Shown here in pieces: positions 30,519 to 63,129 of a DNA stretch of 64,000 bases. This DNA comes from Psammoneis japonica (taxonomy: Eukaryota): contig QPGO01000079.1 in NCBI GenBank assembly GCA_008632985.1, positions 186,001 to 250,000 on the forward strand. Direction: 5' to 3'. The notes under the pieces are model-generated. The model made no database searches. It was not told the DNA's origin and saw nothing but the letters and a program-made list of their open reading frames with translations. Positions within the stretch are counted from its first letter, which is position 1. The number at the start of each line of letters is the position of its first letter. Position numbers and translations under genes: made by a program.

Positions 30519-30996
30519 GGTTGCTGTATGATGTGCGCTCTATCGAGCGACTTCGTACCTCATACCGACCGACCGCCGCCCGTACCGGTACATACTGGAC
30601 TCTGCACAGTGAGTCTATGCGTCGACCGTTTTCGCGCGCCTCCCCTCGCACGAACGTCGATCCACGATGAGACGAATAAAATGCGAACAGCGACCATAAT
30701 GAGGAAAACGTCTTCGTTGGTGATCTTGACGTGTGATTGTGGCAAAGGAACCGCAATATGTTGATCCGGACAAGGTCGATTCGGGCCTTGTTGAAACATG
30801 ACAGTGGCACAGCAAGGTGCAAGATTGTCCCCACAACAACAAGTCCAAAGGTTCTCGGTGTTCAACCCGAACCCTCCACCCGGAAGTGCCGCGAATCAAG
30901 CGGAAGTGAGATGAGAGTTCGCGATTATTGTGAATACCGAGTCGCATATTTTTGCAATTGCAATTAGAGCGTGGCTCCATGAAACTCGGATGAGAC

Positions 30997-32226: not shown

Positions 32227-35200
32227 GCTGCTCAGTTTTATAGTGTTTAACACCTAAGTAAAGCAAGTTCACATCAACAACACATGCTGAGAGAATGTCA
32301 GAGGACGGTTGCATGCTGATGTTTCGAATGCGAAAGCATTGTGTGAATGCTGTGGGAACAGCGAAGAGCCGTCCGCAGTGGACAACCTTCATGATGATTT
32401 TTGCAGATGTGAGTGCGGGGACAACAGGAAGGAAATGGAAGAGGGGGGCTCAGCTGTTGGAGAATGTGAGTTGGCTTGGCTGGCTGACATCATTGCAGCA
32501 TGCATGTGTTGGATGGAGAATGTCTTGGCTTGTTTTGATGACACCAAGCATGGGGGGTGTTGGCAGGGATGGTGACTTCATTGCATTTGACAAGGTCTGG
32601 ACAAAGGGCGATGTTGCAAAGTGACCAGATGAGTTCCAGCAAAGAGTGGATGAGCTGGTTGCATCCAGCTGTCTCAAATTCATGGCCAAAGTCTGGGGCA
32701 GTGACAAGGACAATGGAGCAAGAATCCACAAGCATGTCTCTCAGCATGGTGCAAGGGCAAGGCTTTTCCCAATTTGGATGTGGAGCTGTGTTGGTGGTCA
32801 GAAGATGACAATCTCTTCTTCTGCATGGTGCACATGAAAGCAAGCCAGCAACTGAAGGATCTTGGCAAGGAAAGCATGCACACTGAAGCTTGCTTCAAGG
32901 CAACTCCATTTGGGGGGTGATGAAATGACTGGCGGTGTTGACGGTGAGATTGAAAAGTCAGAAAAGATGCAAATGGACAGTCTGCTTCATCAAAAGCATG
33001 CAAGAGCATTGTGCAAGGTGAGAACCACACCAGATGCACTCCTGGTGCTTGAAGAGGCTCCAGATGATGCAACAGAGGCTGAAAAGGAATTGGAAAAGAA
33101 GAAGCCAAAAAACAAGAGCCAAAACAACAGCAAATCTCATTTGTCATTAGAGTGACCAAGTTTTGTTGGGAGGCACCAATCCAGGTTTGTCTGAAAGAGT
33201 TGTGCAACAAACATGGACTCGCTTGGCTTTGCTTCACAGTGTGCCACAATGATGAATTCTCAACTCTGCTGGAGATCTTCCAAGAATGTGATCTGAGTTG
33301 AAAGCTTGTGAAACATGTGGTGTCATGAAACTTCACAGATCAGCCTCCGGAATTGATGGGAGATGCATCTTGGTGGCAAGTGGTGCAAGAAGATGTGTGC
33401 TGTGCACCAAGTTGGGTGTGTTGGTGTTGCAACTGGGCACACACTCCTGGCAGTGTGCAATGCCAAAATGTGAAAGCTCAGCAAGGCCAGCACCTGGCAG
33501 ATGCAGCAGAGCTGACCAAAGAGGGGAAATTGGATTCATTCACAGCACACTTGCAGACCATTTTCTGAGAGGACACAAACCAGCCAGCCACAAGCTCAAA
33601 AGAATGACTGAGTGCAAAACACTTTGGCAGGTGAGAGGTGAGCCCAGCCACCAGTTGTGTGAGAAAACACTTGGAGTGCTTTGAGTGCACCCTCTGTGCA
33701 TGAGAGAAAGAGTCAAAATGCTTTGTCCAGAGTTGATCGACATGTGGCAAGCAACAAAGCTTCTCCGTGGCAACCTGCAACACAAACAACAGCTTAAACT
33801 TTGGTGCTTGCAGGCACAAAACAAAGTTTCACAGGTCCACGGAAGACATGTCTGGCATGAAAAGCACCTGAGCTGATGTGAGCAGTGTGCCCAAAAGAGG
33901 CTGCAGCAGCAAAGATGGAGGAGCAGATGGAGACACTCCAAATGAGAGATGTCTTTTCATCTGAGGTGAGAAACGCGCATGCAGAGGTGAGACATTTTGT
34001 CTGTCCTTCTTTTGTCAACATGCTTTCCATGAGAGCAAATCTGGCTGGACTTTCTCCAAATCTTTTTTTTCTTCTTTCCTTGGATCTGTTCATTTTGACA
34101 TGCCAGGAGTTGTTGTTCTCATTGCTTGCGGCTGTGCTGCTTTTCTCATTTGTCCTCGGTGGTGATCTTTGGCTGGCAAAAAAAGGCCCAGCTGGGGCCT
34201 GCAAATGCAAGAGTGGAGCTGGCTTTGCCAGCACACTGACTGCACTTCTCCAAAACAAATCCAGGCTGGACAGCAAGGGCTGGAGGGTGGGAGAGGTGGG
34301 AGCATTTGAACTGTCGTCAGGAACAGGCACTTGCTGTTGTTCTTCCCAAAAGAATGAGAGCAGAAGCCAGTGCTGACATGCATTTTGGGTTTGCCAATCA
34401 AACCAGGTTTCATCTTCAAACAATGGTTGAGTTGCATCATCAACGCATGGCAATGTGCATGCACAGTGGCAATGGAAACCATCATCTGGCCTGACCTCCT
34501 CCTTGATCCACACATCAGGGATCAGCCAAGCACAGCTTCTGCCCCAGGCAATGCATGCAAGAAGCACATGATTCCTGAAGGACACACCTGCACTCTTCAA
34601 ACCACCACACCTGCATCTGGTCTGAACTCTGGGCCCAGAGTTGCAGTTGTCTTCTCACTGTTGGGTGCAGTGATGCAAGCATTTTTAATGTCTGCTGCCT
34701 TGACCTCCAAGTCATTTGGAGTGGCCAGAGTGAAGGCAATTCTTGCACTCTTGTGTGATGCAATGCTTGTGCAGCATCATGCATTGTCAAGCAGCAGAAG
34801 AAATTGTGCATGTTCACAATCACATGATGTCATGTGTGTCAATCGTGTCACAGTCGTGGATGCATGCAAAGGACAGATTAATCACACAGATGTGATTGAA
34901 TGTCAAAAATTGCAAATGCAATTGGACAATGATGATGACACATGAGATGTCAATGTTGATCACATCCGGACAATCTGTTGTCATGATCTAATTCTCTGTA
35001 AGGCCTTCAGTTTGCAGACACAGCACAAAAGCTTTGGGCCATGAAGAACTCCTTCAGAGAAACCCCAAATCTCAGAACACAATCCAATCTCATAATTTTC
35101 CACTTTTCATGATTCATTCTACTTCTGTTCACAATTGTTCTTCAAGCATGGTGCACTTGCATGTGTTGAGGTCACTGGAGGTTCAATCGTGTGCCCCCCA

Positions 35201-35229
35201 GCTGTGCAGTGTGCCCCTTTGCACCCAAA

Positions 35230-38200
35230 ATCCTGCAGCTTGATGTCAAACACCAAGTGACTTGATGTGCTGGTGTCCCACCAGTTGTTCATTGTTGTCA
35301 ATTGTCTTGAATGCCTTCCAAACAATGGACATCTCCTTGTTTGTGGAGTCTTGCCACAGGCAATTGCCACTTGCCTTGTCAATGTTGACTGCTTCACAGC
35401 AATTCTTGTGAATGCACACCCCACACTTGTGGGTGCATTTTAAGGCACAGGGAACCCACCATGCAGAAGTGGGTTCATCTTCAATTGATCAATGTCTGGC
35501 ATGCTGCTCCACCAGCTCAGCGGGATTCAATTCCTTGAAGTTGCCAGATGTTCCCAGGTGGTGGCACCATCTTTCCATCAAACACCAAGATGCCAGCCCT
35601 TGGTTGTCTTGCACATGGTGCTGCATCCCCTGCTTTCCTGGGTGAAGGTGTCCTCCTTCTGGACTGTGTGTTCATTGGTCTTGTGGCCTGCAATGGCATC
35701 CAGCAACAGGTGCTGGTTGCCTTCATTGTTGCACTGGGCAAGCACATTCTTGGCTGTGACATTTGCTGCAAATTCAGCCTCCTGCCCATCAGAGAATTTG
35801 ACCTTGCACACACAGGTGTCCAGGGACAGATTGGGCTTGCTTGACCTGTTGGTGTTCCATCTGCATTGAGCTTGCATCTCTTGACTGTCCCAGTTTGCTG
35901 TGTGTCCCTATGAGGCAGCAGCACTTCTGAGTTTGCACATGCATTGAAGGCTGCATCCAGGATGTCATCCTCATTTGGAGCACTGGATGGAACATCCTGT
36001 TCCTTGTCATCTTTGCACAGATCAAAAGTGGGGGTTGCAGCATCTGGATCATCTGTGTCCCTGACTGTCATGCCGGGACCAAGCTTGGCCTCCATCAATT
36101 CTTCAAACTTTTCATGCTGTGCTTTCACGCAATGCTTGGCGATTCTCTTGGTGGCATTCTTCTGTGGTCAAGGGTTGACAGGTTGAACATTAGACAACCT
36201 GTCCATTGTCTTCAAGTGTCTCAGCCATCATGGCTGGACCCACATTCCAGCTGGGACCAAGGTGTCACCCTGGGACCTCCTTGTCTTTGGGGAACAAGGC
36301 TGCCATGTCAATGAACATAACCCAGTCATGATGCCAGCCAAAATCACACATGTGCAAAATGTCAACTCTCTGTCCTGACACAGCAGTTTTGCCATCCAGT
36401 TTGAAAATGTTGTGGACAGTGTTGGATCAAACAAGAGCCTCAAGTTAAAGGCAATCATTCCAAATTCATTTCAGGGCTCGTGTCTCAATCATCTTGCACC
36501 CTGCAGCACCATGCTTCAACTCACAAATGGTGCCCTCAGCAGCATTGGACCAAAGAATGCAGGTTCAGTTTGTCTGATGTGACAGTCAGCCTCCCTGACT
36601 TTCTTGTTGAATCACCATGTCATGGCATCTGTTCTTTTGCCCATCCACTGTCATCAACAATGCTTTGTGCACCAAGGGGCAAGCACGTGCCCAGCCATTG
36701 GACATTCCAAAGACTTGGGCACATGTGTTGCCTCATCTGGACCTGATGGCAGAAAACATTGTGTCAAAGCACATCTCCTTTGTGACACACCTGCATCTAA
36801 GTTGGCCGTCATTGGCTCCAAAGTTGCGCGACAGCAACAGATGCAAAAGACTGCATGAACATCATGCAGAGCAGTGACCTCAACAGCATTTTCAACATCC
36901 TTCAAGCTGATGGACCAGTTCTTGGCAAAACATTCAGCACCCACTTGAAGTTCCCGCTTTGTTGTTGTGAGCAAAGAAAGATTCATTGAAGCAAGAAGCA
37001 CATGGTTGTTGTGTGCATTTGAAATGTCCCACAATGGCTGGCTCCCCAGACAATTTGATGTGCAAGAGCTTCATGCTCATGATTTGGATCTCTGAGGACA
37101 TGCATCATCCCCAGCCTTGTGCATGCAGCCAAGGGGATCTGTCATGAAATCCTCCCTGGCTTGGTGGTCTGATGACTGTGGGGGGATTTGTGGGCAAGGT
37201 CATGCACCAAGCCATCTTGCACAGTGGCTTTGCACTCAGAAGCAGCAGGTTTTATCATCGGGAAACAGCTGGATGAGAGTTGGTCCTTGTCTGTGTTGGA
37301 GAGTGTTGCCACATGTGACATGCTGTCAGGCTTTGTCATCAGGAATTTTGGTTTCAGGTTGATTCCCACATCATTTGGCTGCAGTTGCATTGGGCACAAG
37401 AGGTTGTGTGCCAGGTGCGGAATGTGGTCTGCCTGGTGCACAACCAAGATGTGTTGATGTCTCACAGCAGGATGATCTGCACACACCACGGCACTGCCAA
37501 TGGTGTGCAAGCTTTTGCCAGTGCCCAGGTCAGGAGGATCACATCCTATGACATCTGCAAGATGATCATGGTTGAGTGATGTTAAAGTGTGTTCAACCAG
37601 TGCTTTCACTTCTGCACGACTGTCAATCTCAGTCTGAAATTTTTTTGTGTTGCACCCCCAACATGGGCATTTGCATGAGGCACAAGGTCTGAAGTGGGCT
37701 GAGGTGCACAGCCTTGGAGGAGGAGAACCATCATTCATTCTTCCAGTGTGGCTTTGGATGGCTTGTCCTTGGGTTTGTGCCCACAAGCATTGTGCAGGGA
37801 CTCAAGCTTTTTCTCAGCCTGTGGTGACATCTTGCCACACTCCTTTGGAGGTGGCACTTGTCCTCTGCGTCATCAGCATGAATGACACTGCACTTGCATT
37901 TGCCAGTCTGCAAGGCAGCAATGCAAGTCTCTTGCTCTCACTGTCAGGCTTGGACTGGCTGCTTGATAAAATCCTCGAACAGGGCTGCACAAGCTTCAAA
38001 GTTGCTGCGCAGCATCATGCTGCCACAATTTGTGTCTTGACTGAGCCAAGGAAAGCATTGTTGACACTCTCCAGAAGGTGGAGCACCTTGAAGTGGTCAT
38101 CAATTCTGGCACAGCTGCACTCCTTGAGGCCTTCAAGGATCATGTGCTGTTTGACATGAGCGCTGTTTGACATGAGCACACACACAGCACTCGAAATTCC

Positions 38201-38995
38201 AGTTGTGGCATTTGCCACAGCAGGAGAGCAATGCCAAGCACTTTTCAGCAGTGTTGTCCATGTTGTCCATGTCACCATGCCCCAAAAAATGGTTGCAGAG
38301 GTTCGCGCAGGTGGTCCTGCTGTCCTGAGCTCTTTGGGCCTTCTTGACACAAGCCCAACATGAGTGTTCCCATGTGATGCCTGAAACAACCTCCCAGACC
38401 TTGACATTGTTGGCAGCAAAGGTTTTGGCAAGCTGAGGATTGTCCCCAGCAGCAAAGTGTGGGGCACATGCTCCAATCTCCATGCACACATTGGTGCAGT
38501 TTGTAGAGTCATCTTGGGCTTCCAGAACCAAGCACACAAGTGGCATCTTGGTTTCACTGTGACAAGCCCACAGGTGCTCATGGATTGACTCTGTGGTCTT
38601 AAGCCAATCCTTCTCAATGATTGTTTGTGGGACTTCAGGGTGATTCTCATGGGCCCCTTCAGCAGCATGGAGGTGACGGGGCATCCCCAAATGCAGTTCA
38701 GTGTGACATCGGCGGCACAGAGAGGAGTGCAAGAAGAGATCCTTTTGCAGTGGTGTGCACCACAAAGGTGGCAAGCTTGAGATTCATCTCAGCATGGAGG
38801 GAGATGGCAGTCCCCAAGTTTGGCTGTGGGCTCTGCCCACCTTCTGTCACACCTCCTGGATGGCATGCAACCTTTTTGAACAAGATCTTGACCTCATGAT
38901 TGTCAAGGCGACTCTCAGTTTGTTGACAATGTTGATTCCCTGGCTGGCAGTCAAGACTGTAGATGCTTTGTTCTAGAAGCCAAGCCTGCAGCATG
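35230..38995 (-). mobile_element. Degenerate Ty1/copia LTR retrotransposon (diatom CoDi-type): gag, protease, integrase and region preceding RT
   Basis: gag NWNFECCVCAHVKQ...LEGLKECSCARIDDHFKV; protease TEIDSRA...HNLLCPMQL; LDTCVCKVKFSDGQEAEFAANVTAKN..AQCNNEGNQ and KTTKGWHL. No LTR pair found. Confidence 0.8.
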
Positions 38996-39695
38996 CGTTG
39001 CTGCTGTGGTTGATGGTGACAGATGTGACTGCACTTCTGTTCTCACAAATTGTGTGGAGTGTGGATGTGACAGAAAAGTGAGAGAAGTGCATGATTTTCA
39101 CATCACTTTTTTTTGTCATTGCATGTGCACCCGGCAGTTCATGTGATCAACTTGTCTGAGGTTGTCATTCCACACATTCTGTGCTTGTGCTGGTCCAAAA
39201 CACATGTGCAGTGGGGACTGGAATGACTGCCCTCACATTGACACTCTTGGTCAAATGCCACCAGTCCCATCATGAGACATCATTCTCCCAAGGTCCACCT
39301 GACCATCTGTGAGTTTTGGACACAATGTGTTCAATTGCATGGCATGCACACATTCCCACATGGACATGTGTGCGGCTGCTCAGATTTCAAATTGCTCGTG
39401 CATTTGCCACCGAGACAACTTCGGGGTGGAAATGGCATCCCAAACATCAGCTGAGCTCTGCACTCGTGCAGGTGTGCCATGAAACACATCAGAATCATCG
39501 CGTCGACAAGCAACAAAAACAGCATCACTCATCTGTGCAAAGAGAGCAGGAATGACAACATGTGCCAAAACAACCAACATGACTGTTGCTGTTGCTGCTG
39601 CCATTTCTGCTGTTGAGATTGCTTTCTGTTTACAATGGCTCCAAAGAGGATTGCAGCAGTGGATGCAAGTGGTGAAGAGAGCAAAGCAATGTCAA

Positions 39696-40194
39696 CCCTT
39701 CAACCACCGGACTTGAGCAAATCTCCATGGGTGGAAATTTGCTCGCTTGCATCACAAATGCAGAGCAAATGAAGTAATTTCAGATGCACACAATGTTTTG
39801 TTCACGCGATTTTGTTCTGGAACGCGCATTCGCTGAAAATCTGGAGGCACCCTTTTTGCAATTTAGAAAGTTCAATGTCGACTTTTAACACTGGGTTTTT
39901 TGCAAGCTTCATCTGTGAACAGAGAGGAACTAAATCTCAACCTTCAACAATGAAGGTTGTCATGAATTGCCATCACAAATGGAGCAACAATGCCACATCC
40001 TGGGAGCAAATCTCCGCCGGTGGAGATTTGCTCCCAACAAGTAAATGCACGTGGCACACTTTACCTGGATTGCACACAATGTGACATTTCTTGCTGTGTT
40101 CATCACATTGTCACAAAAGTGCATGACACGTCACACATCCTTGAGCAGAGCAAATCTCCATGGGTGGAGATTTGCTCCCCTGGTGGTTGAAGGG
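39696..40194. mobile_element. piggyBac-like MITE, 499 bp, with 13-bp TIRs and a mutated TTAA target site
   Basis: TIRs CCCTTCAACCACC (39696-39708) and GGTGGTTGAAGGG (40182-40194). Flanks TCAA (39692-95) and TTGA (40195-98). Three internal GAGCAAATCTCC..GGA(G/A)ATTTGCTC palindromes. Confidence 0.75.
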
Positions 40195-40238
40195 TTGAGC
40201 AACGATGAAGAGTCCGTACATGGATTCACGGGCATGGG

Positions 40239-40321
40239 GTGCGATGCTTGATCAACAGTGACGAGCGCAAAATGTTGGGCTTCAAGTTGCTTGAGGATGG
40301 CGACAAATGCACAATTGGTCC

Positions 40322-40354
<33 letters not shown>

Positions 40355-41804
40355 AATGGTGGACAAGAGGACAGCAGAGGAAATGATCGAATCTTTGGTT
40401 GTCAAGCATCAAATTCTGGAGAACAAGGGACGACCAAAACGAACTCTTTCGCACATGACAAAGAGTCATGCTTTCTCATTTGCCGTCACAAAAGAACGGG
40501 TCACTTTGGGGCACAACTTCTTTTTCCCATTGCTGTCGGAGAGCAGCGCGGCAATCACTGCAGCTTTCAAGATGGATGGACCTGCATCTGCCCTCAACAA
40601 GAACAAGTGTCACCACCCCTGCTTCCTCTCGGAAACCAAGAAACTCATTGATGTGGTGCAGTTGGCAAACATTGCCATTTGACAACAGCTTTTCTGGACA
40701 AAAGGTGGGCACTGGCTCAAGTTGGATGATGGCATTTCCTCCGGCACAGAACCAGATGTTTCGACGGTTGATTGTGCGCCAGACAAAGGCGAGCCATTGG
40801 TGGCGTCCGCTGATTGAGTGAGGCTTCCTTTGACCAAGCACAACATGGCAATGGCTTTTGAACAAAAGAAAAGCTTCTTGGAGACTGATCAAATCAAATT
40901 TGTTGAGCAGGCAAGAGGCTTTTGTGCACACAACGGGGATGGCGGACAGCTTTTGTGGCCTTGTTTCACTGCTGTGGGGGCGAAAAATACATTCAATGGG
41001 CAAAGACAACTGACATGGATGGACAATTTGTGATGCAGACAACCAAAGCAGCATCCTTGATGCCTGGCGAAGATGGGCAACACCAGCTTCTCACAATGTC
41101 ATCCAAGACGTCCAGGCAGCTGGGACGAGATTTTCCTTCCTGTGGTGGTGACGCAATGCAAGTTTCAGAGAAACCAGATGTTTTGTGTCAGGTTGGCAAG
41201 GGGGCAACATCTGCTGTTTGTTGTGCAAAGCTCAGGGAAACAGAAGGAGTTGCGAAAGTTATGAAAAGTAGATTCAAGCATCCAGCAGCACATGAGAAGG
41301 GCACTCTTGACCAGTCAGAGAGGAAAGGAGTCCCTGGTTTGTCGGAAAGCACCTTGGTGATGAACGGTGTCCTCTTTTTCAATTCCTTGCTGCAGCCGTT
41401 TGAAGGAACTTTCACAGTCGAACAAGTTGGTGATTCTGCAGACTTCATGGCTCAGTTTCAGATTGGGGTTTTGCCCTGATTCACAATTCTTTGAATTCAA
41501 GCCCTCCAAATTTAGAAGGCACTTTTTGCCATGCAAGCAAAGATGTCTTGAATGCTGCCATTCACGCGGAAACACACAGCCCCATCCAAAAGATGATCTG
41601 GAGTTGTTTCTCAAGACCGTGCCAGCCGTCAATTCTGGGGGGCACCGACTGTGGAAAAGATTGTCTGAAACAGAGCAAGGTGATTTTGTTGTGGCCCAAG
41701 ACATCTGGAGAGAAGAAAAGGAACAACACTTGAACTCTTTCCTCTCAATGTTTGAAGCAGCAGCATCTGCCAATTGCGAAGCACTCAAGCAGTTAATTCA
41801 TTGA
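40239..41804 (+). pseudogene. Degenerate protein-kinase gene (Crinkler/FunK1-like architecture)
   Basis: QVGKGATSAVCCAK...GVAKVMK (Gly loop and VAK) and PHPKDDLELF; broken by stops and frameshifts; polyQ near the start. Confidence 0.5.
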
Positions 41805-44800
41805 TCTTTGAGTGCGACACATCTGTGGTGCTTTTTGTGGTCATGGTCATGGGTCTTCTTCTCTTGGCCAGCAGCTCCTTGTTCTTCCTCCAATCTTGAA
41901 AAGCATGGGCCAGAATGTTGAGGCATTTACACTTTTCTCATCTTCTCCTCCACAAGCTTTTTGAACCTCAGTTTCTCCCTGTTGGTCCACTTGCGCCTTT
42001 TGCACTCAACAGGGGTTCCAAGGGGCTGTTCCTCATTGTCTGAAGGGTTGCATTCACACAAATCAGTCTCCTCCATGGTCCATTGTTTGTCCATTTGAGT
42101 GGAACTGAGATGGAGCGGTTCCAAGCACTCCTTGCATTTTCAAATCGAAGCACGTTAAAATGGAAGTTTTCCAGGGGCAATGAGCACCCGGAAAACTTTG
42201 ATTTTGGATTTTTCAACTTGGTTTTTCACCACCCCCAAACAGGAGGGTTCTTGTGTCAGTTGCTTCAGGTGCAGTGCAGTGCTTGGTTGATTGCATGCAA
42301 TGGCTCACATTGTCTGCACAGGCAGGCAGAGCGCTTGCATGCTTGCAACATGGGTGACCAGATCTTCTTGGTTTTCCGAGAACCTCCCTGCACCGCCGCA
42401 ACTCTGCCCACCATCAAGCCATTTTGTCATCTTTGCAAGCTGCCGCCAGTGTGGCCAACAACAGAGGAGCGCCCTTTGAAGTCACTTCTCCCTCATCTTG
42501 CGCAAGACAATCATGCCGCCAGAGAAGAAGAGCCACAAGAAGAAGCAGCGCCAGCCTGAAAAAGAGCAAACCCAAAGGCAAGTGGCTTGCCAGAAGCAAA
42601 AGAGAGAGTTGACACATGGCAGCTGCTGCCATGAGCTCTTTGGAGTTGTGCAAACAAGTCCTCAACAAGGCCCAGCAGTTGATGGGCAAGTGCCGCTGCA
42701 GGAAACAACAACTGGCTGTGCTGCAAAATGGGGGGATGTTTCTGGCAACTCGCAGTCTGTCTGGGTTTTGCTGTGCAAATGAGCCAACCGGCAATGTGCG
42801 GGCAAGTTGGTGAGCAGCATTTTTTTCAGCCTGTCCAGAGAAGTTTGAGTTCTGCCAACATGACAGCAGGTTAGCAGGAACATCAACTTTGCTCAAAGAA
42901 TCAGTCCACAGAGATGAAAAAAGGAGCTGCTTCTTCTGCAGCAACAAAAGGGTGCACCAATTCCAAGTGAGAAAAAGAAAGAATGAATTTCAGATGGAAA
43001 GATTTGTGAAAAACGTCATGTCGCCACAAGAGTCCTGACAAGCAACTGTGCAACAATCATTGAAAGACAAAATGTCCTCCCTTGGCCCTTGAAGTGCACC
43101 GGTGCTTCCCACCTGCCAGCACTTGCCACAAAAGAGAAAGGACAAACCTTGCTCTCACAGTTGGTGCAAGGCAATGACACTCTGCTTTTGTTAAGAACAT
43201 TCACAACAAGGGCACACAACCTTTGGATTTTCACTCAGGCACTGAAAAGCATGATGAAAAGGACAGGCAGCGGAGCACACAATCTGGCATCTTGGATGCA
43301 TGCATCAAGGAGGGGGTGGATGGCAAATGCAAAGTGTTTGTGACAGCAGGGTGCAGTGGCAACACAAGTTTCACTTCAATGATGACTCACATTGGAGTGG
43401 AATCATGTTTTGCACAACAGCTCCCTTTGAGCTGATCACAGCTCAAATCAAGCACAACCAACATGGTCAATCCACAGAGCTTTTTGAGGATGCTGCCAAC
43501 CATGGCTCTTTGACAGCATGCATGCCACCAAAGAGCAAAAGCCAAAAGAAGCAGCGCCAGCCTGAAAAAGAGCAAATCAAAAGGCAGTCAATGATGGCCC
43601 ATGCTTTGATGGACACATTGCCAAGCAAGGCCACCTGTGTCATTGGAAAGAATGGGGCTGTGTGTGACATCATCTAGAGCAGCACTTTGTGCATTTCAGA
43701 GGAGCCTTTGTTCCAGCTGGTGACTCCCTCTCTCATCTCCAGGGAGGGATCTGACAGCTGTGATGACCCTGACAGGACACTGCAGCCACCTCTGTTCACA
43801 GACAATGTGACAGAGTTGCTGCTGCAACCTGAGTGGAGACAGAGACAGAACTGGGTTGTGATCGATGCAATCACAAAAAGTTCTTGGTGACACAAGATTT
43901 AAAAATCAAATTGCTCTTCATTGCATGGAAACCAAAATGACGCCAATGCACTGCTCAAATCACAGCCAGCACATTCAATCCACAGAGCTTGTCATGGATG
44001 CCACTGACCATGGCATTTTTGTGCAGATCAAGGCACCCCAATCACACCATGGCAAGCCCACTGTTCCCACAACACACTTTGTCATGGACAGTCATTGAGA
44101 GCCCTTGCCTCATTGCACAGCTTTCCATGCACCAACAGTTGCACAAGGTTCATGCCAAAGCTCAAATTGCTTCTTTGAAGAACTGCACTGGCACACTTGT
44201 GGAGCATGTCAGCTGCCCCCCTGTCTTGACAACCAAGGGAGTGGAACATCACCAGCTCTCCAGTTGATTTGTTCACAGAAACCCTCCAAGAGCTCAGTTG
44301 CTTGCCTGAAGTTTTGCCACACAGCACAGCAAATTAGCTCCAGCAAATCTGCTTGCTGCGGGAGATGAGACAATTGTCCACAATTAAGTTGTCACAGTTC
44401 ATGATGCAGGTGCACCCACAGCATCTTCTTGCAGCATGATGCTGAGTTGCCCACGTGTTGCTTTCAGGGGGGAGACAAACAATGAATGAGAAATTTGGCA
44501 CAAACGCTCTCACAAGAGCTGCTGCAATCACTCCTTGATTTGCCAAATCTCACCACAACTCAACAGCTTGCAAAAGCCAGCCAGTTCTTCTCAAACCAGC
44601 GCTGCAATGTTTTCATGTGGATCTTGTGGGAATGGCCTGCACCTCTGCTTTCCAAGGAAGAGGGAGAGTGCAGTCACAACAGTCTGTCAGGTGAAAACAG
44701 CATCCATGAGCCGCGGTGTTTGTGTGGTGAGATTTGGGTTCTGAGCAGCAAAATGGTTTGACAGTGCACAGAGTTGTTGCTGCAAAGGGGGCTCTGCACA

Positions 44801-44984
44801 AGCTCATTTCCAGGGCACTGGAAGAATGAGTTGTGATGTTCTCCACATGCCACAAACACATCTCATGTGATGAAGATGAGACACACAAGCACATCACCCA
44901 ACTCATTTTTCAAAAACTGCACACAGCACCCCTCGGTGTCCTTCACATGGCCAAATGTTTGTGCAGAGGCCCCTGATCAGGGGT

Positions 44985-45683
44985 GGACAAGACATGTGTT
45001 TTGCTCATCATGCACTGGCTCTTCCATCTTTGGGAGGACAGCTGACAAGGACGACATTGATCAAGCCTCTGGCTCAGCCTGCTGGTGGCCACTTCTCTCC
45101 CATGTGTCAGTCCAGGACTTTTGTGACCAAACAAGTTGCACAGGAAATTGTCAGGGGCAAACCAAGATGAGGCACCAAGACAGCGTTTGTCCTTTGGAAT
45201 GCAGCAAAGCTGCCACCCAAACAAATGATTGGCAGACAGAGCATTTGATGCCATGTGGTTTCACCACCAATGGTGACAGTGTGCAGCTCAACATTGCCAC
45301 AGGATTGCAGCATGTCTTTTGTGGTGGCAAGTGCTTGGGAGCAGAGGCAAAGAGGCCCCTTTTTGGTGTGACAGATGTGACAACAATGTCTTGTGCACTT
45401 GCAGGGATGCCAATGTGCAAGTGGCACGGCCTTGCAAATTCAATGATTTAGAGTGCTGATGTCCAGCTGCAAAGACCTGTCTTGACTGCATTCAATCTGA
45501 GGCAGAAGCTTGTGACAATGAATTGCCAAACAAGACTTGCAGCTCTGGGAGTGCCAGCAGTTTGGAAAAAAAGGCTGTTTGAGAGTCATTGCTCTGTCAC
45601 CCACTCCTTTGAGCCCAAGTGCAGAGCCAACAAAATCCCCAACACCACTGCTCATGACCAGGCCCACTCAAACCAATGGACAG

Positions 45684-45725
<42 letters not shown>

Positions 45726-46620
45726 CCTCTGACTGTGTCTCCAATGTTGCCAGCACAGGCAATGGCATTTCCAAGCACAGCGGGGCCACAAGTGTTGGCA
45801 CAAGCAGTGTGTCACCCAGCGCACCAACTCCAATGAGCAGCAATCCCATCAATGCCTTTGTGGGTTGGATGCCAGTTCTGTGGGCAGGGCTGCTGCAGAG
45901 GCGGCTTGCTCTTGTTGCAATTGGGTGGCTGCTGCAGTGGTGTAGATCACTGCCATCCTTTGGGCTGCTCAATTTTACAGTGTTTGACACCTGGGCAAAG
46001 TGGGTTCACATCAACAACGCACGCTGAGAGAATGTCAGAAGACACTTGCGTGCTGATGTTTTGAACACAAAAGCACCATGCAAATGACACAGGAACAGCA
46101 AAGAGCTGGCAGCAGCAGACAACCTTCATGCTGATTTTTTAGATGTCAGTGCAGGAGGGACAACAAGAAGGAAATGAAGGAGGGGCTCAGCTGTTGGAGA
46201 ATGTGAGTTGCTTTGGCTGGCTGACCTCATTGCAGCACCCACAAGTTGGAGAATGTCTTTTGGCTTGTTTTGATGATGCCAAGGATTGGGGGGTGTTGGC
46301 AGGGATGGTGACTTCATTGCATTGGACAAGGTCTGGACAAAGATGTTGCAAAGGGAGCAGATGAGTTCAGCTTGCTGCACCCACCCAGCTGTCTCAAATT
46401 CATGGCCAAAATCTGGGGCAGCAACAAGGATGAGATCATGGAACAAAAAGAATCCACAAGCATGTCTCTCAGCATGGTTCAAGGGCAAGGCTTCCCCCCC
46501 ACTTGGATGTGGGGCTGCTGTGTTGGTCAGAGTGCAACAATCTTTTCTTTTGCATGGTGCACATGAAAACAAGCAAGCAGCTGAAGTGTCATTTTGGCAA
46601 GAAAAGCACGTGCACAGTGC
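44985..46620 (+). pseudogene. Hypermutated paralog of 30988-32885 (mucin-like gene plus 3' flank), with (AAC)n run at ~45685-45725
   Basis: Alignable by eye along its length; only one PTS repeat unit; frameshifts and stops. Confidence 0.9.
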
Positions 46621-47865
46621 AAAGACTCCCTGATCTTTGTCAAATCATTCTTGCCAAATCAAGTTTCCTTTCAAGTGGTGCACATTGAAGGAAATCAACA
46701 AGAAAGTGCAGTGCATTGTGAAAAAAAGTGAAACAAGATGGCCAGATCTGAGCCAATCAGATGTCAAAGGCCCCTGCTCAGGGGCAGGGTCTGAGCCCAC
46801 AGGCACTGCACAAAACAGTCCAGAATCATGCCAACCAAAGAAAAGTCAAGAATTGTTTGCATGTGCATGTTGACATTTTTCAGCTTTAGAAACTTGAGAT
46901 TCAGTCACAAAAATGACTCAAATCAGCAGCACACTCACACTTCAATGACAAGAGTGTGCAACATCTTTTGCTGCATCAACACCACACTGTTGCAGCAAAA
47001 TGGAGCAAACGTCACTCAGCTGAGAGCTGCTGTTGCCTTCCAGTGCATGTCAGGGAACATCACAAGCTGGCCAACAACTGCAATCTGGTGCTGTGTCAGC
47101 TGTGAGGGAATGTGAAGCTTGAGCCAAGGACACAAAGAACTTGTTTTGTTGTGTTTGCCTGTCACAGAGTTGCAATCACCACAGCTCACACAAAAGGAAC
47201 ACCGGGTCTTCTTGAAATCACTTGGCAACAATGGACACATGTGTGCACAAGGCAATGTCAGGTGTGGCCTCTGTGTGCCAGCTGTGCAGCATGCTTGCCA
47301 AAGCAATGAAGCAAAACAAAATGGTGATGCAAGAAGCATGTCCAAACACTGGAGCAACAAGAGAAAACATCTTGAAGACACAAGACTCAGCAACTTTGTG
47401 AGGTCACAGAAGGAGCTGCAGACAAGCAGCAGACCATGCAAGAAAGCATGACATGCCTTGCCCACTTGCAATGCCCAAAAGCTGCTGCCATTGCACCCTG
47501 GACTGGCACAGGTTTGGTGCCCACTTCAGAGACAGCTGTGTGCAAGGTCATCTTCCCAGGAAGAGTCATGATTTGTTCAATCAAATTTTAATCTCATTGG
47601 ACCCACAGAAGCTCATTGCAGTCCCCACTGTGAATGAAAAAGCCATTTCATGGCCACAGCTGCCAAAACACATCAAAGCTGAATCATTTTTGAATCGAGA
47701 CATGACAAGCCTCGTGTCGCGTGGCAGCACAAGACAATGCACAGGAATGCATGGCTGTTGTGAAACACCATGTAGTTGCCAATTCTTCAATCTGCAACTT
47801 GTGAGTCAGATTCTCCTCAAAGTCCAGAACCAAAAGTGTGAGTCCCATTCATTTAAAAGCGTTGG

Positions 47866-49011
47866 TCAGTTGGGATTGGCCTTGGCTCCCAGCAATGCAG
47901 CAACAGCCTTGAGCGCACGTCCGCTGAAGTCAAAAAGACTGCACCGTGGCACCTCACTCCACTCTTGTGCCAAAAACCACTTTTCGGGCTGCGTCCAATG
48001 GGGTCCCCAACAAAACAAAGCAGTGCAATTCATCCTCATCTGAAGCATCATTGTTAAATTGTGAAGGCAGTCACACTGGCCTTGTTCTGTCAGGGGGCAA
48101 GGGCACTTCTTACTGCATTCATCATCCTCATCTTCAGCGCAATCTCTTTCGTCACCTTTCCAACAGCAGGCTGTTTCCACTGCCCACACATCGAGTTGGG
48201 GGAAAAGTGTGGACAAATTGTTGATGTTGTCCTCGAGGTCTTGGATGGATCCATGCCACATTGGACAGCAGGAAAGGCCAATCACATCAACGACTCCACC
48301 TCGGTTGAGACATTCACGGAACCATTTCTTGCACTCCATTTTGTTGCCGCCTTCATTGAGATGAGTGACAATCTTGGGACGCTTCTTGGGAGGGTCCATG
48401 TCTTTGACAACATCATTGACCGCATCCACACCACTTTGCACCAATGGCATGAATTTGTCCCAATGATCAGGCAAACAAGCCATTTCCCACAGCATCCCAA
48501 CAAAGATCTCGTTCCCAATTTGGACGGCATCAGGCATTGTGTCTTGATCCTTGAGCGCTTGCATGAACTCCTTGGTGTGATTGTAGACATGATTCCACAG
48601 TGCCTCTAATGAAGGCTGTGTTCCGTTGCTGCCGCCCACCCGCCACGACAACGGGGTCCATTGATTTTCCCCGTCGGCCCACCAATGAGAACAATGAAAA
48701 TCTGAGAGGAACTTGAACCCGCATTCGTGCTTGATTTGCTTCGCAAAGTCCAACACATGCGCAAGATTCTGGTTGAGACCATGTCTTCCATCCGGCTTGA
48801 CCATGACTTGAAGTCGTGCACAATCGCAGTCCTCAAAGAACTTTGGCACACGCGAAATTCGTCCACAAAAATCCTTGTAGACCACACCGGAATGTTCAGC
48901 CACCATGGCCTCCAAGCCGTCAAATCCAACCCAAAAGTCTTGCTTCGGCACACCAGTGTGGACTGTTGTTGCAACAACAGGCACAAGTGACACCATCAGT
49001 GTGAGGATCAT
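47866..49011 (-). pseudogene. GH53 endo-beta-1,4-galactanase; frame open but Tyr->Cys/His mutated
   Basis: DFHCSHWWAD, PDAVQIGNEI..GMLW, DVIGLSCCP.WHG, VETACCW and LFCW correspond to GH53 DFHYS.WAD, VQ.GNE, D.IG.SYYP.WHG, ETAY and FYW. Confidence 0.8.
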
Positions 49012-51598
49012 CGGCTTCGATTCTGTTGCGGATGTTCAAATGGAGCAGTAATTTCGAAGGGAGAATCCATGACAAATTCTCAACGTTCTTCATCTTGGTC
49101 TGCATGAGAGTCCATCTCGTGGTCCGTTGGTTGCAGGATGCTGCGTTCAGTCAGGTCTTGGGTCTCCTCTCCTTTCTCCATCAGTCTTGCATTTCGCCAA
49201 CAAAGCACCCTCAAATCAGGACATGCACTCACACTTCGATTTGTCACGATGATTGTGGCAGGCACTGCCCCAATAAAAGGTTTGGTGCAACAGCAGTGGA
49301 AGCAAGCAAATGACCAGCGAGTCTGGTGAAAGTGAGTGTGGTTGAGTGTTTTTTGTGCTTTGGTGAATGACACAGCCCCTCTGCATTTCTTGTTTCAATT
49401 TTTCCCAACCTTTCTCGTAGACCTCAGTTCAAAGTTGCACCAGAAGAAAGGCCAAAAGCCGGTCAAGCCACTCTTTTTATTGTCTCACAGCATTTGACAT
49501 CGTGTCAACTGCTCCCACAATTACACACGTGTCACTTGATCGATTGGGCCTTTTTCTGATCGTGATTCGAATGTCTTCCACAAATGATGTACAGCACATT
49601 TTCTTTCAGTGGATGATTTTGGAGCTTTGAGCAAATCTACGAGTGATGGCCTTTGCAGCCTGCAGTTAATTCCACTGTACGACAACCATGCTCACCGTTC
49701 ACCGAGGCCACAGGTGACAGCAACCCACTCTCCATCGTGAGTCTGTGCGTCGACCACAGACTCTCATGATGGAGAGTGACAGCAACCCCATGAGCAAAGC
49801 TGCCAGTGGCTGAGCACAACAATTCATTGCAGTCATTCATTTGCCTTGAACTCTTCCTTCCAAAACTCTGGACATTCTGGATCTATTTTGCACATTGCTT
49901 GCCTTCCCAAGAACAGCAGTTGGCAAACTTTTGATGCCCAGCTCAAACTTCCTTTGACCAGTTTTGGGTGCACTGCCATGGTTGCTTCCAGCTTCCTTGT
50001 CGAGATCTGGAGCTGGTGGTGGTGTGCACACACCCAAAATTGTCAGAAAGCTGACTGCAGTCTTCTGAGCAGCACTGACACAGCTGCTCTCATGCTGTGA
50101 TGATGCTTCTCCCTTCTTGTTGCCCGCTTCTCATGCAGAGCCATCAAAACACCCGCTCTGCCTTCTCTTGTCTCAGGTCAAAAGAGAGGAAGTCAGCTGG
50201 GTTGCCACCCACAAGGGCTGTTTTCTTGAAATGCTCAGTGAGCCACTTTTTTCTGGTTGAAGTGGACAAAGAAGAAAGCACGCCGGCCGGTGAGAAAGAC
50301 AAGGACTTGAGACACACAATGGTGCAATGAACTCAGCAGCACTTTGCACGACATTGGTGGTGCATGAGCTTCAACAGCAGAGGTGACGCAGAGTGTGGCC
50401 GACAAAAAGAAGCCATCCAGCACACAGAAGCAGGGCACTTGGCTGTTGTTGTGCTGAACAGCTCTTGGCCCCAGAGTTCAACAACAGTGCAGCAAAACAA
50501 AAAATTGCACAGCTGTGTTTCAACTTTCAAAAGAGTGTCTTGTTCTCTGTTGCTGGTTTTTTGAGAGCAGGGGCAGACATGTCCCAGCCGCACGTGAACC
50601 AAATCATGCACAAAAATGACTTTGCATGATTTTCGTGCAGTCTCGCTGATTTGCAACCTGGCTTTCTCCACCAAAAGCACAGATTTGTCCAAATTTGAAT
50701 GTTTTGAAACACTGACAAGACTTGCATCAGTGTTGTAATGTCATTGTTTTTGTGTGCAATGTGTGTTTTTTGTTGCGATGAATGAATCATGACACAACGG
50801 ATGATTTTCGGCGAAACCATTGCCGTCATTTTGATGTCAAATGTCAACATGAGCGATGTTTCTGCAATGCTGTCTTGCATGGGTTCCACCTGCAGACAAA
50901 TCTCTGCACACAGTGCACTGTTGCACAATCAGCATTGAGTCCACTGAGGAAGTTCACGATGCATGTCCCACAGGGACTTGCACGCCAACGAAAAAACCAG
51001 CTGAATGTCCTTGCTCTGCACACCTGCTGCATGAAAGCACATCCACTTGAGTGGTTGATGTGAAAATGCTCCACACACGAGAGACACATGGTTTGTGTTC
51101 AAAATTGATTGTCGTTTTGTGCATCACCTGGGACTGGAGCACGCCGGCAAAAGTGGACTGGCACTTGGATGACGCCGCTGCTGTGGGTTGGAGATGTTCT
51201 TTTCTCTTTTTTCAAAGCGCACGCATGAGAGCAAAGTGGTGATTGCCACAGGAGTTTGTTGTGCACAGCTGCTAGAGGCACAGTCAGCACAAAACACGTC
51301 CCCGACAGTTGGCTGAAGATTTGTGAGAGGCAAAGAAAATTATTTGACCACCCCACAAGAAGGCATGAGCAACTCGAGCTCTTCTACAAAGGAGCTCGCG
51401 CACAAAGCATGCCAAAAATTTTTGGCGCGGCAGCATATCATGCACTGACGAATGACCGACCATTCAAAAATAACAAAAGAGCACAAAAGAGCAACAACAA
51501 CAGTCAGAGAAAATAGGGCCCTAGTAGAGAAGAACAAGAAAGTGTTTGCTATCGACACACACACAACGTTACATACCATGACTTGTTGTCCCTAAAAT

Positions 51599-58139: not shown

Positions 58140-60895
58140 CGGGCATGTTGACGTTGCTCGTGCCCGCGGCCACACGCTTGTGCGGCCCATCTTGATTGCT
58201 GTCAACCTCACTTCTGAAGACACACTCTCAGAACAAAAAACACAGGTTACAATCTCACAATGGGGTTTTGGCAGCTGAGACCCCTTTGTGTGGTGCAATC
58301 AACAAAACACAGACACCACTCAACAGCCTTTGTTTAAATTGGTCCACACGTGCACACCACTGTGTTGACTGGGACGGCACAGGTGGATTGTGTGTCGTTC
58401 TTGTGCTGGAAATGCCATGGTGACATGTTCACCTCATTCCACCATTTTGGTTGTCTTTGTCACACAAGACACTGTTGTTTCTTGTGTCTTTGAAATCACC
58501 CAGCAAACTTGAACCTTCATTGGCACATCTGGATTTTGTGGCTTTGCTTTTTGTGGCTGTTTGTCTCCATCGTGCATTCTTGGCATTGGGGGGCAAGAGT
58601 CATTGAGACACTCCCCACTTGATTGTGTTTTCCAGCTTTTGAGTGTGTTCGTGAATGTGTTTGGTGAGCTGTGGACTGTTCATCTTGCATGTTGTCAGCT
58701 TGTGGCTGTCATGCTTGGGGAATTTTGGACCATCATCAAAAACTTGGCCGTGGCATTTGCTCTGCATTTGGTTTCACTGAGCCAATGTGGACTTGGTTGT
58801 TGCATTTTCTTGCCACTTTTTATGGGAGTGGCATGGCACATTGGGGTGACTCTGGAGTGCAACCAAAGCCTTTGTTGACAACTTGGAATCTGTTTTGCAA
58901 AACCAGGATGACAGCCAACCCCTCAATCTGTTGGCTTGGCCAACAATCCGGTTGAATGAGATGGTGCCATGGGGCTCAGGCTTGTGGTCATTTGCCTGAG
59001 AGCTCTGTTGTTGAGAACAGAGCAGATGCACAGGTGACACTCCATGAATGGCAGATGTGTGAATTTTGCCATTGTCATCCTCAATGTTCCATTTCAATGT
59101 TCCTTCCCCTTCAACTTTTGGGAGTTTGCCTCCAGCACCTCTTGCTTTCATCTTGACTGGCTCAAGTTCACCAATGAAGTGCTCCTGCTTGATTGGCACA
59201 CAGTGAAAAAGGTGCCGTTGTTGATGCCCATCATGAGAGCAACTTTGCAAGCTGCTTGTTTGGCAGCCCATTGGTCAGTTGACCTTGTTGTTTCACAGTT
59301 GTGTGCCTTGGACAGCAGCTGCTTTTGTTTGGTGGCAAGTGCTTGCATGGTGCACTTGCATCTGCTGTTTTTTGTGGAATGATCCTCTCACCCAACATCA
59401 TTGTCTGTGTCATGACTTTCTTGAATGCTTTGTGAGAAAGGCCAGGTGCAACAACCAAGATTGTTGGTGCCATGGGAGGTGCCATGATTGCAGTCATCCA
59501 GGCTGCTGTGAGGGCTCTGAGAAACAGAATCAGCTCAGCCAGCTCCCACAGTGTGTCCAGGTCTCTAGAGAGCCCTCATGAAAGTCCCAAAAGACCATCT
59601 TTCCTTGGATTGGATGTCCTTGAGGACAGCAGGAGGTGCATTTGAAAATGAAACTTTCTTCAAGAAATCCAAATTGTTGCCTGTCTGGCTCTTGTGATTT
59701 TCTCAATCTGTGGCCACATTGGGTCTGTCATCATCTGGTGGGGGTGAATGACTTGTGGTGCCGGTGCCAGCAGCACTTGTGGCTGCCACGAGTCTTGAAG
59801 CAGCACTTTTTTGCCATTTGCAAGCTTGGCAGAGTGAAAGTCCTTTGGTGGAGGAGCTCTTTTACAGGAGTCATTGGAGACTCCCTTGTGCCTTCTTCTT
59901 CCTTTTTGTTCTTCTTGGACTTCTTGCCACCCTTGTCCTTTTCATTTGATGCACTCATTGAACTTTTCAGTTTTGCCCACACTGGCCATTTGTGTGTCTG
60001 AACCTGACAGATTCTCATGAAAGAAGTTCGTGGCAGAGCTGGTGTCCATGATGGCTTTTTGGACAAGCAGCTTGAAAAGAACACCATGCCAACTAGATTG
60101 CCATTGGCGGTGCATTGCTCATGCTTGGAAATGATTTTTTCTGTGGCTTTGGGACAACTGAGAAATGCACTTTGCCATCTGCGCAGCATTTTGAGCTTGC
60201 AGTTTTGCACATGGCTCCTGATGTCCTCCACCGCAATGTTTGTCCTTTGTTTGTGGCAAGCTTTCTGTTCACACAGATGCTGTTTGGATTGTCAGCAATG
60301 TCCCCAGCTCCTGTCATCCATCCTGAGGAAGCTGCACATTGAATCAGTGTCTCAGAAAATTTGCTCAAGCCTTCAGAGCCAGCATTGAAGGCCCATCAAA
60401 GAGCTTGGATCTCATTGTGCCACAGCTTGAGTCCCTGGGAAGCACTGCAGTCAATGAGCTGATTGGGTTGGTGTTGTCCTGGCATGAGTGCAAAGACAGG
60501 CACTGTGGCAGGTGCAGCAGGATGGGCTGGAGGTCCAGGAGCATTAGCCTCACCACAAGTTGGCACACCGACACCGCTGCCACCTCCAGGAGGGAGGGAC
60601 AGGCGCGCCATTGTGGCGGACATTGTGGAAGAACAAGGCATTCTTGACACAACCAACCCTTGCCTTTTGCCTGATGTTGGCCTTCAAAGCCCCAGCTGCA
60701 AAGGTTGCCTGCACTTTGACATGGTCCATCCAACCACCGGGGCGCATGAGCACATTGCTCAGGAGTGAGCACCTTTGGTGACAGTTGTGCTGACACTGGA
60801 TCATTCAATGGCATTATTCTTCGAGCAACTGGAAACGGCAATCCGTCCCTTCCCCGCTCTGAAGGCCGTTTCTCAGATGGCTTCAATGCTGTTGA
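58140..60895 (-). mobile_element. Degenerate copia-type LTR retrotransposon fragment (gag/protease), TpA-depleted
   Basis: KVEGEGTLKWNIEDDNGKIH...LLCSQQ..QANDHKP..GT (protease region of diatom copia) and KKCCFKTRGSHKCCWHRHH (gag C-terminus). Confidence 0.6.
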
Positions 60896-62679: not shown

Positions 62680-63129
62680 TGATGATTAACTATTGTTCGA
62701 TCGTGTGCATATTTTTATGAGCAACTAGAGAGTCGTACGAATGAAAATGTTCGAAACGAGAAGCCAAGAAGCAATCGTGAGCGAGCGATGAATCCCCTCT
62801 CTAGCGATTCCGTTTATTTCACATTTTGCGACTTGCTGCATGGCAGTTCCTTTGAAATCTCTAATACTATCAGATAGAAATAGACATATATCAGCCAGAA
62901 TCAAGCAGAGCCAAGCAGCAAAGCAATACGATATCTTGGCTTTGTCTTTCTTGTCTCCTCAAGAGCTCAAGACTCAAGATTGACGGGCTGACGGGGGTGC
63001 GCGCGTCTCTCACAAAAAACATGATGGCAGCGGCGCGCCCTCCGCGCATGTCTCGGCTCCAGTTGACGCAGTTTTCTTTCTTTTCTCAACCGAGGCCATT
63101 TTTTTGTTTGACAAGGAACCCTTGTGAGG

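Follow-up and report, generated by a model that had tools for sequence, protein, structure and literature searches.

In the chlorarachniophyte Bigelowiella natans, 230 of the 231 mutations recorded in the integrated virophage and nucleocytoplasmic large DNA virus (NCLDV) regions of mutation-accumulation lines were A>G or T>C; all of these lay on TpA and arose at about 6e-7 per site per generation. The genome holds clusters of windows that are poor in TpA and rich in CpA and TpG, and the authors proposed a DNA adenine deaminase akin to ADAT2 (Mettrop et al., bioRxiv 2026, 10.64898/2026.01.13.699255; all statements on this preprint refer to the available part of its text). As far as our literature search shows, this was the first report, in 2026, of context-specific A:T>G:C hypermutation of nuclear DNA, and it concerns one chlorarachniophyte. 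It is also the closest precedent for what we describe here in the diatom Psammoneis japonica, in a stretch of 64,000 nucleotides of nuclear DNA ("the window": contig QPGO01000079.1 of assembly GCA_008632985.1, positions 186,001 to 250,000, numbered from 1 below). In the window, islands of genes with normal composition are interspersed with compartments that have sharp boundaries and in which transitions have turned nearly all TpA and most CpG into TpG or CpA. One compartment contains a copy (copy B) of an intact gene (gene A) in which most of the TA and CG of the parent have become TG or CA. Our literature search brought up no description of TpA depletion or hypermutation for diatoms, subscription journals being outside its coverage.

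As far as the available part of the preprint describes it, the process in B. natans shares with ours A:T>G:C transitions that are confined to TpA and give TpG or CpA according to the strand, a restriction to particular regions that opposes the usual GC>AT bias, and a lasting depletion of TpA with enrichment of CpA and TpG in clustered windows. On the other hand, the host here is a stramenopile and not a chlorarachniophyte, and the depletion is far more complete, with an observed/expected ratio (o/e) of TA of 0.05 compared to a Rho of 0.45 in their NCLDV region. Here the loss is spatially coupled with a loss of CpG, which is absent from the available text; the victims include the duplicate of a host gene and the relic of a GH53 gene, and no viral domain was found in the frames scanned (see below). 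We see a preference for T-A-Y and a refractory TTAA, whereas the string 'TTAA' occurs 0 times in the part of the text at hand, which makes no mention of diatoms or stramenopiles either. Finally, our case is known from its footprint alone (at most 1 of 28 TA retained, against 7% background transitions), whereas in B. natans a rate was measured, about 1000-fold above background.

Other systems are similar in some respects only. The repeat-induced point mutation known from ascomycete fungi (RIP) is a heritable, context-dependent transition hypermutation that wrecks duplicated or repeated DNA and leaves aberrant compartments beside normal genes. However, RIP changes C to T mainly at CpA and makes TpA and AT-rich DNA, whereas here TpA is destroyed and the GC content is 0.488 in the compartments and 0.485 in normal DNA; furthermore, homology is the trigger of RIP and both copies are struck, whereas here the parent is spared and the edge of the depletion does not track the repeat. 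RIP also depends on C5-methyltransferases of the RID/DIM-2 type in a sexual phase. The decay of CpG through 5-methylcytosine in vertebrates and plants resembles the CG changes described below, which lead to TG and CA in similar numbers (22 and 25), without context and in silent, repeat-bearing DNA; diatom transposons are known to be CG-methylated. However, it leaves the disappearance of TpA unexplained, which here proceeds faster and closer to completion. AID/APOBEC and ADAR/ADAT deaminases edit with short sequence preferences and are used against foreign or repeated nucleic acids, and the A on which tRNA adenosine deaminases act has U and C as its neighbours, much like the T-A-Y preference. 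The strand-coordinated clusters of APOBEC are absent here.

Gene A and its copy

The duplicated unit consists of the following elements:

30994..32226, + strand: gene A (parent copy), an intact frame of 410 codons
30988..33035, + strand: copy A of the unit, made up of the gene, roughly 150 bp of 3' sequence free of the mutations and about 650 bp inside a depleted compartment
44985..46747, + strand: copy B of the unit, a pseudogene with stops and frameshifts in the frame of gene A

The region 44985-46620 is a segmental copy of gene A and its 3' flank, sitting in a depleted compartment. A reading of the sequence alone (the sequence-only reading) had aligned it to 30988-32885, and the duplicate is real: a repeat search of the window returned the pair as 11 collinear blocks with 77-88% identity, and a gapped local alignment of 30988-33035 with 44985-46747 has 1408 identities in 1697 columns (83%). 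The duplicate thus extends to about 46747, the alignment beyond 32885/46620 being weak and broken by gaps. When we compared the window with itself in a purine/pyrimidine code, in search of repeats blurred by transitions, only the A/B pair and small local repeats appeared.

Gene A encodes a Cys-rich N-terminal domain, followed by Thr/Pro-rich tandem repeats of 120 bp and a hydrophobic C-terminus. No Pfam family was matched in a Pfam scan and a word-indexed protein search with the Cys-rich region gave zero matches; an exhaustive HMMER search found six distant homologues of this domain (E 2.8e-24 to 2.2e-7). Since the six share a clear common motif, we consider gene A to be a member of a real family. 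Its dinucleotide composition is normal (CG o/e 0.83, TA o/e 0.49), and in the unit of copy A only the final 500-650 bp are depleted, not the coding part. In copy B, on the other hand, CG o/e is 0.10 and TA o/e is 0.04. We also note that copy B is without most of the Thr/Pro-rich repeat array; at the place of the 120-bp repeats of gene A (31632-32000) it has a (CAA)n run of about 15 units (45686-45730).

For the coding part, all tallies compare 30988-32227 of gene A with copy B, and they are as follows:

TA in gene A, 28 sites: in copy B 1 kept, 16 TG, 8 CA, 3 other
CG in gene A, 49 sites: in copy B 0 kept, 22 TG, 25 CA, 2 other

Substitutions of all kinds in this part amount to 147 transitions and 28 transversions. 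Outside any pyrimidine-purine (YpR) step, the background is 33 transitions (7%) and 13 transversions (3%) at 469 positions, so that the excess at TA and CG is far above chance and both kinds of sites are saturated. Over the pair in total there are 53 transversions and many indels. The sequence-only reading had counted 17 TA in 30988-31545, with 14 cleanly changed to TG or CA, one retained and two ambiguous, and this tally is exact: the retained site is TTTAGA at 31448, and the ambiguous ones are 31135 (TA>AG) and 31347 (TA>AA). The six examples of TA changes quoted in it are all found in our alignment, its remark that CG also changes to TG or CA applies to 26 of the 27 CG in this interval, and both strands are indeed hit, as TG and CA outcomes are seen for TA and for CG alike. 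Reverse changes are rare; copy B has 4 TA and 10 CG in total, and only 9 stand at TG or CA positions of gene A.

Next, we asked in which direction the changes went. The sequence-only reading had proposed TA to TG/CA and CG to TG/CA in the copy, and had named an outgroup comparison as the check; run with protein homologues in two separate tests, this comparison supports the proposed direction, TG/CA not being the ancestral state. For the first test, copy B was mapped codon by codon onto gene A through the nucleotide alignment, which corrects for the frame. There are 28 amino-acid differences due to a change at a TA or CG of gene A. At 20 of these the six outgroups side with the residue of A and at 3 with that of B, while at the remaining 5 they are evenly divided or give no answer; counted by residue, 39 match A and 4 match B. 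The differences in B include one CGA>TGA stop and four Tyr>Cys changes at positions where several outgroups have Tyr.

The second test concerns a neighbour of copy B in the same compartment:

47866..49035, - strand: GH53 (endo-beta-1,4-galactanase) relic, a frame open over 389 codons, 2 kb from copy B

The frame matches PF07745 with E 3e-55 over practically the whole length of the profile (positions 9-339 of 340), and galactanases in the PDB with E 2.4e-31 and weaker. Among ten Tyr that are consensus in 20 homologues, the relic has kept 1, while 7 are changed to Cys and 2 to His; the same treatment of the 20 homologues as controls gave no Y>C and 3 Y>H. The relic accordingly contains 0.5% Tyr compared to 2.9-5.3% in homologues, and 5.4% Cys compared to 0.3-2.1%. 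For example, in comparison with the solved galactanases DFHYS has become DFHCS, S(F/Y)YP has become SCCP, ETAY has become ETAC and FYW has become FCW. The GNE and ET motifs are retained, yet with 9 of the 10 consensus Tyr replaced the family-conserved residues are not intact. With a CG o/e of 0.58 and 389 codons still open in spite of the heavy damage to its Tyr, the frame looks like a recent arrival in the compartment; it may be the host's own or have come from bacteria.

From the outgroup counts together with the loss of Tyr in GH53 it follows that TAY>TGY/CAY is derived. The direction is TA to TG/CA and CG to TG/CA in copy B, with the parent gene spared. The opposite direction would be that of classical RIP as in Neurospora, with TG/CA ancestral and the copy at 31 kb having gained TA by C>T at CpA. 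While the A/B pair alone, with no outgroup, leaves the direction formally ambiguous, this reading is refuted by the 20 to 3 count for the state of A and by the loss of family-conserved Tyr in GH53. In addition, A is intact whereas B is full of stops, the composition of A equals that of neighbouring genes whereas that of B equals that of its 19-kb compartment, the loss of CG in B is not accounted for by RIP at CpA, and GC is unchanged at 0.49 whereas RIP enriches AT. We would give the RIP direction practically no chance.

Some sites have changed twice: TG in A corresponds to CA in B 13 times and CA in A to TG in B 4 times in the coding part, or 17 cases compared to about 11 expected from the 7% background (a hand estimate). 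The TG>CA doubles are derived in B, as the Cys, Trp, Val and Leu encoded by the TG codons of A are conserved in outgroups. In the 3' flank, which is depleted in both copies, 11 TG/CA discordances occur among about 142 TG/CA sites. Since this matches the double-change estimate, it suggests that the flank was already depleted at the time of the duplication, and that the process acted both before and after it.

The depleted compartments

Copy B is just one victim within a much larger region. Four compartments take up 24 of the 64 kb:

1..1550: compartment 1, extends past the left end of the window; CG o/e 0.11, TA o/e 0.02
32380..51350: compartment 2 (19 kb); TA o/e 0.03-0.11 throughout, CG o/e 0.11-0.12 where it is deepest (higher in the parts given below)
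58200..60800: compartment 3; CG o/e 0.13, TA o/e 0.04
63000..64000: compartment 4, extends past the right end of the window; 0 TA in 1 kb, CG o/e 0.40
Compartments pooled, 24,123 bp: CG o/e 0.22 (314), TA 0.05 (78), TG 1.75, CA 1.89, GC 0.488
Normal DNA pooled, 39,877 bp: CG o/e 1.03, TA 0.53, TG 1.19, CA 1.19, GC 0.485

A TA o/e below 0.2 together with TG/CA above 1.5 is found in 23 of the 64 1-kb bins, as read from the table of the window. The edges are sharp at a resolution of 200 bp (about 1550, 32380, 51350, 58200, 60800 and 63000) and lie 150-450 bp from intact genes of normal composition, namely gene A, a topoisomerase, a DUF7640 protein and an amidohydrolase. For example, compartment 2 reaches from about 150 bp past the stop of gene A to about 450 bp before the topoisomerase gene. 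Ordinary intergenic DNA inside the gene islands is not depleted.

The depletion has a marked effect on reading frames. TAA and TAG occur 1.3 and 0.95 times per kb in the compartments, compared to 6.8 and 6.9 in normal DNA; since both are nearly gone and TGA is the sole stop left, the compartments contain many long frames. We count 159 stop-to-stop frames of at least 75 amino acids in the 24 kb, in all six frames, several of them longer than 200. A Pfam scan of 145 of these (14 within copy B were omitted) gave GH53 as the only real match, and no viral or transposon domain was found among the 145. Matches to Herpes_UL24, Olduvai and dsRBD2 (E 0.004-0.005) were below the curated cut-offs and were taken as chance.

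Most of compartment 2 is single-copy (word depth about 68), while three stretches are repeated 40- to 80-fold:

34336..35002: multi-copy repeat in compartment 2, word depth about 2700
39672..40338: multi-copy repeat in compartment 2, word depth about 5200
50344..51000: multi-copy repeat at the right end of compartment 2, word depth about 4400

At 34879-34880 and at 39945-39946, other copies of the repeat in the same sequencing run show a different member of the set TA, CG, TG and CA at the same position. This variation is as expected from independent decay of an ancestor bearing CG or TA. Some loose ends of contigs beside repeat copies have a normal, CG- and TA-rich composition.

The word depths come from a public run with contigs (assembled with 31-mers) over the locus, which we call X1 and which is possibly the assembly's own source and hence not independent of it. 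The X1 contigs match the compartment over stretches of 1-3 kb with 0 differences, at a word depth of about 65-73. Comparing the window with other contigs, we find that 29 of 40 listed differences, beside 141 further ones, are exchanges between CG/TA and TG/CA; the same holds for 9 of the 10 listed differences at single-copy depth. These differences fit an independent and possibly continuing decay of alleles and repeat copies, with alleles, strains and paralogues being indistinguishable here. A second run, X2, from the same sample and of uncertain kind, has contigs over 31001-32334 only and none in the compartment, which is not to be taken as evidence of expression.

Kinetics, context and mechanism

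We wanted to know whether the losses of TA and CG can be told apart. TA o/e stays within 0.00-0.11 in all sub-compartments. CG o/e, on the other hand, goes from 0.11-0.13 in the deep parts to 0.36-0.56 in 39400-42600, 47800-49800 (the GH53 relic), 49800-51300 and 63000-64000, and low CG beside normal TA is seen in none of the 1-kb windows. The uniform loss of TA and the variable loss of CG mean that TA is lost faster than CG, or independently of it.

The sequence context differs as well. Among the 28 TA>TG/CA events in the A/B pair, 15 have T-A-Y on one strand only, and at 13 of these 15 it is the A of that strand that changed (p = 0.007); where T-A-C stands on one strand only, the A of that strand changed in 14 of 17. 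We then compared the contexts of the 78 surviving TA, as strand-symmetrised tetranucleotides, between compartments and normal regions:

TTAA: compartments 19, normal 49; density ratio 0.64
CTAA/TTAG: compartments 14, normal 86; density ratio 0.27
ATAT: compartments 0, normal 115; density ratio 0
ATAC/GTAT: compartments 1, normal 239; density ratio 0.007

These counts lead independently to the same context dependence as the A/B pair. The surviving TTAA sites are distributed over all compartments. By comparison, the 52 CG events show no flank preference, with flanking bases as expected from their availability, as spontaneous deamination of symmetrically methylated CG would give. In summary, the losses of TA and CG are separable in kinetics and in context, and it is likely that there are two processes. 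Strand-coordinated clusters, as made by APOBEC or RIP, were not found: the 80 events form 53 runs, compared to 40.9 +/- 4.4 in shuffles, which points to many independent single-site events and not to a processive burst on one strand.

The explanation that we consider probable combines a TpA hypermutation with a CpG decay, as two processes that are targeted to regions of silent DNA and act across whole compartments. The former would be a TpA-specific A:T->G:C hypermutation, fast and complete across the compartments, with a preference for the A of 5'-T-A-Y-3', while TTAA mostly escapes. In its most economical and most likely version, an enzyme acting on DNA would deaminate adenine to hypoxanthine, which is read as G, as proposed for B. 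natans. The slower decay of CpG to TpG/CpA would be due to the deamination of 5-methylcytosine in symmetrically CG-methylated silent chromatin. Ordinary mutation would from time to time create a new CG or TA that is quickly resolved either way, and this may produce part of the TG->CA and CA->TG doubles. Regarding the targeting, the coding part of gene A shares the repeat with B and yet keeps 49 CG and 28 TA, and in copy A the depletion sets in at about 32380, a point within the repeat unit that lies some 150 bp beyond the stop codon and does not coincide with the edge of the repeat. As the parent copy is spared and the edge lies off the repeat boundary, targeting would be by region or chromatin state, limited by transcription units, and not by sequence homology.

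A different possibility is that one machinery does both, that is, a single silent-chromatin system attacking the two self-complementary YpR steps. It could be a deaminase acting on A and C in DNA, or a dioxygenase of the TET/JBP type that turns the two 5-methylpyrimidines, T in TpA and 5-methylcytosine in CpG, into oxidised bases that mispair, so that T>C and C>T result; 5-hydroxymethyl- and 5-formyl-uracil do mispair with G, and such a thymine- and 5-methylcytosine-modifying enzyme is a live rival. The compartments that have lost TA are exactly those that have lost CG, down to their sharp edges, the outcome for either dinucleotide is TG/CA on both strands, and the ADAT2 of amphioxus is reported to edit A and C in DNA (as cited in the available part of 10.64898/2026.01.13.699255). 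However, a single machinery does not easily account for a uniform depletion of TA beside a depletion of CG that varies about five-fold among sub-compartments, nor for a flank preference at TA events that is missing at CG events. Moreover, B. natans shows the TpA process alone, the word 'CpG' occurring 0 times in the part of the preprint at hand. In our judgement one machinery for both is rather unlikely, but it deserves attention. We think much less of the idea that the compartments consist of DNA that is foreign or distinct in some other way, with a composition that is native, or selected against TA and CG, and did not arise by mutation in situ. The hypermutated regions of B. natans, as far as described, are integrated viruses (10.64898/2026.01.13.699255), and the named homologues of the GH53 frame are mostly bacterial and fungal. 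On the other hand, copy B comes from a host gene 14 kb away and gained the signature after the duplication, which contradicts this idea; the changes destroy conserved residues and make a stop codon, which would not be expected of selection, and the 145 of 159 compartment frames scanned are free of viral and transposon domains. It is very improbable.

Editing could also have taken place in RNA, by an ADAR-like A>I activity on double-stranded RNA, followed by reverse transcription and insertion. ADARs prefer a 5' U, and their editing affects both strands of double-stranded RNA (available part of 10.64898/2026.01.13.699255). However, the signature spans 19 kb of contiguous, mostly single-copy DNA with edges at gene ends, B includes a flank that does not look transcribed and is without processed features, and the loss of CG is unaccounted for. 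The 3' preference here is a pyrimidine, while that of ADARs is G. An RNA origin as a whole is very improbable. Potentially, there could also be a problem with the assembly itself, if modified bases (5-methylcytosine at CG, some modification at TA) had been called wrongly. The affected sites are exactly the two palindromic dinucleotides, and base modifications cause systematic miscalls in some long-read technologies. The kilobases of X1 contigs without a difference from the window, at a depth of about 68, argue against a base-calling artefact, even though this run may be the assembly's source. Furthermore, B differs from A also by its 53 transversions and many indels, and the Tyr>Cys pattern is fixed in a GH53 frame that otherwise aligns well to its family. 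An artefact is therefore very hard to believe.

Several observations speak against a combination of TpA hypermutation and CpG decay, or limit it. The 13 TG>CA doubles exceed the approximately 6 expected from two steps, so the simple model is incomplete, and the plus-strand asymmetry of 13 TG>CA to 4 CA>TG is not covered by a two-step model. The excess of strand alternation (the 53 runs) is without explanation. The contexts of residual TA take the normal regions as a proxy for the ancestral content, and the strand of the lesion is not readable from sequence, the A in T-A-Y being equally the T in R-T-A. We infer deamination, methylation and chromatin targeting alike. As X1 may stem from the source sample of the window, it does not add independent weight to the assembly reads. 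The GH53 frame, open over its whole length, may be young in the compartment and not dead. Finally, TA-depleted windows were found in 0 of 1,480 1-kb windows (the sum of per-locus counts) in 80 metagenome loci around relatives of a helicase of the window (12937-15189, see below), about 36 of which hold diatom-like orthologues by identity. The footprint is thus not general in diatom-like DNA, at least in its metagenome-assembled parts; the phenomenon may be confined to this lineage, or the assemblies may under-represent such DNA.

Neighbouring genes and significance

The gene islands contain the following further genes:

12937-15189, + strand: SF1 helicase (AAA_11/AAA_12 type) in a gene island
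24604-27069, + strand: SF1 helicase of the UvrD type, in the same gene island
51796-54840, + strand: type IA topoisomerase (Toprim and Topoisom_bac followed by a zinc knuckle), distributed over three frames that are presumably separated by introns
61190-62685, - strand: Amidohydro_1 gene in two overlapping frames (intron or frameshift)

For the first helicase, the best named relatives come from Cylindrotheca, Pseudo-nitzschia, Seminavis, Cyclotella, Skeletonema and Nitzschia (46-55% identity), and relatives without a name reach up to 62%. The topoisomerase gene starts about 450 bp from the edge of compartment 2. The Amidohydro_1 gene forms a 2-kb island of normal composition flanked by two depleted compartments; its fold includes free-base and nucleoside deaminases, with no link to DNA editing. 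There is no deaminase gene in the window.

The locus provides a second and distant host for TpA hypermutation, a diatom, which belongs to an ecologically very important group for which genetic tools exist. The footprint is near completion, and the A/B pair is a natural before-and-after pair with outgroups that fix the direction. The preference for T-A-Y and the refractory TTAA define a specificity that any candidate enzyme must reproduce, and an enzyme with such an activity would be a natural DNA adenine editor. Furthermore, the process can strike duplicates of host genes and halts within a few hundred bases of active genes, so that targeting by chromatin state becomes open to a direct test. 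The compartments also matter in practice: gene finders are likely to call many false genes in the long false open reading frames of the compartments, and the decay conceals the ancestry of repeats from similarity searches.

More speculatively, diatoms, or at least this lineage, may possess a heritable genome defence, independent of homology, that edits the DNA of silent chromatin, so removing the two pyrimidine-purine steps that are self-complementary. It would include an adenine-editing (or thymine-modifying) activity on DNA that is specific for T-A-Y and unable to act on TTAA, and it could be the same ancient system as in the rhizarian Bigelowiella, widespread among stramenopiles, alveolates and Rhizaria. 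We put this forward tentatively, as an idea whose chances we rate below even. If true, TAA and TAG stops and Tyr codons would be stripped from the targets of the defence as a side effect.

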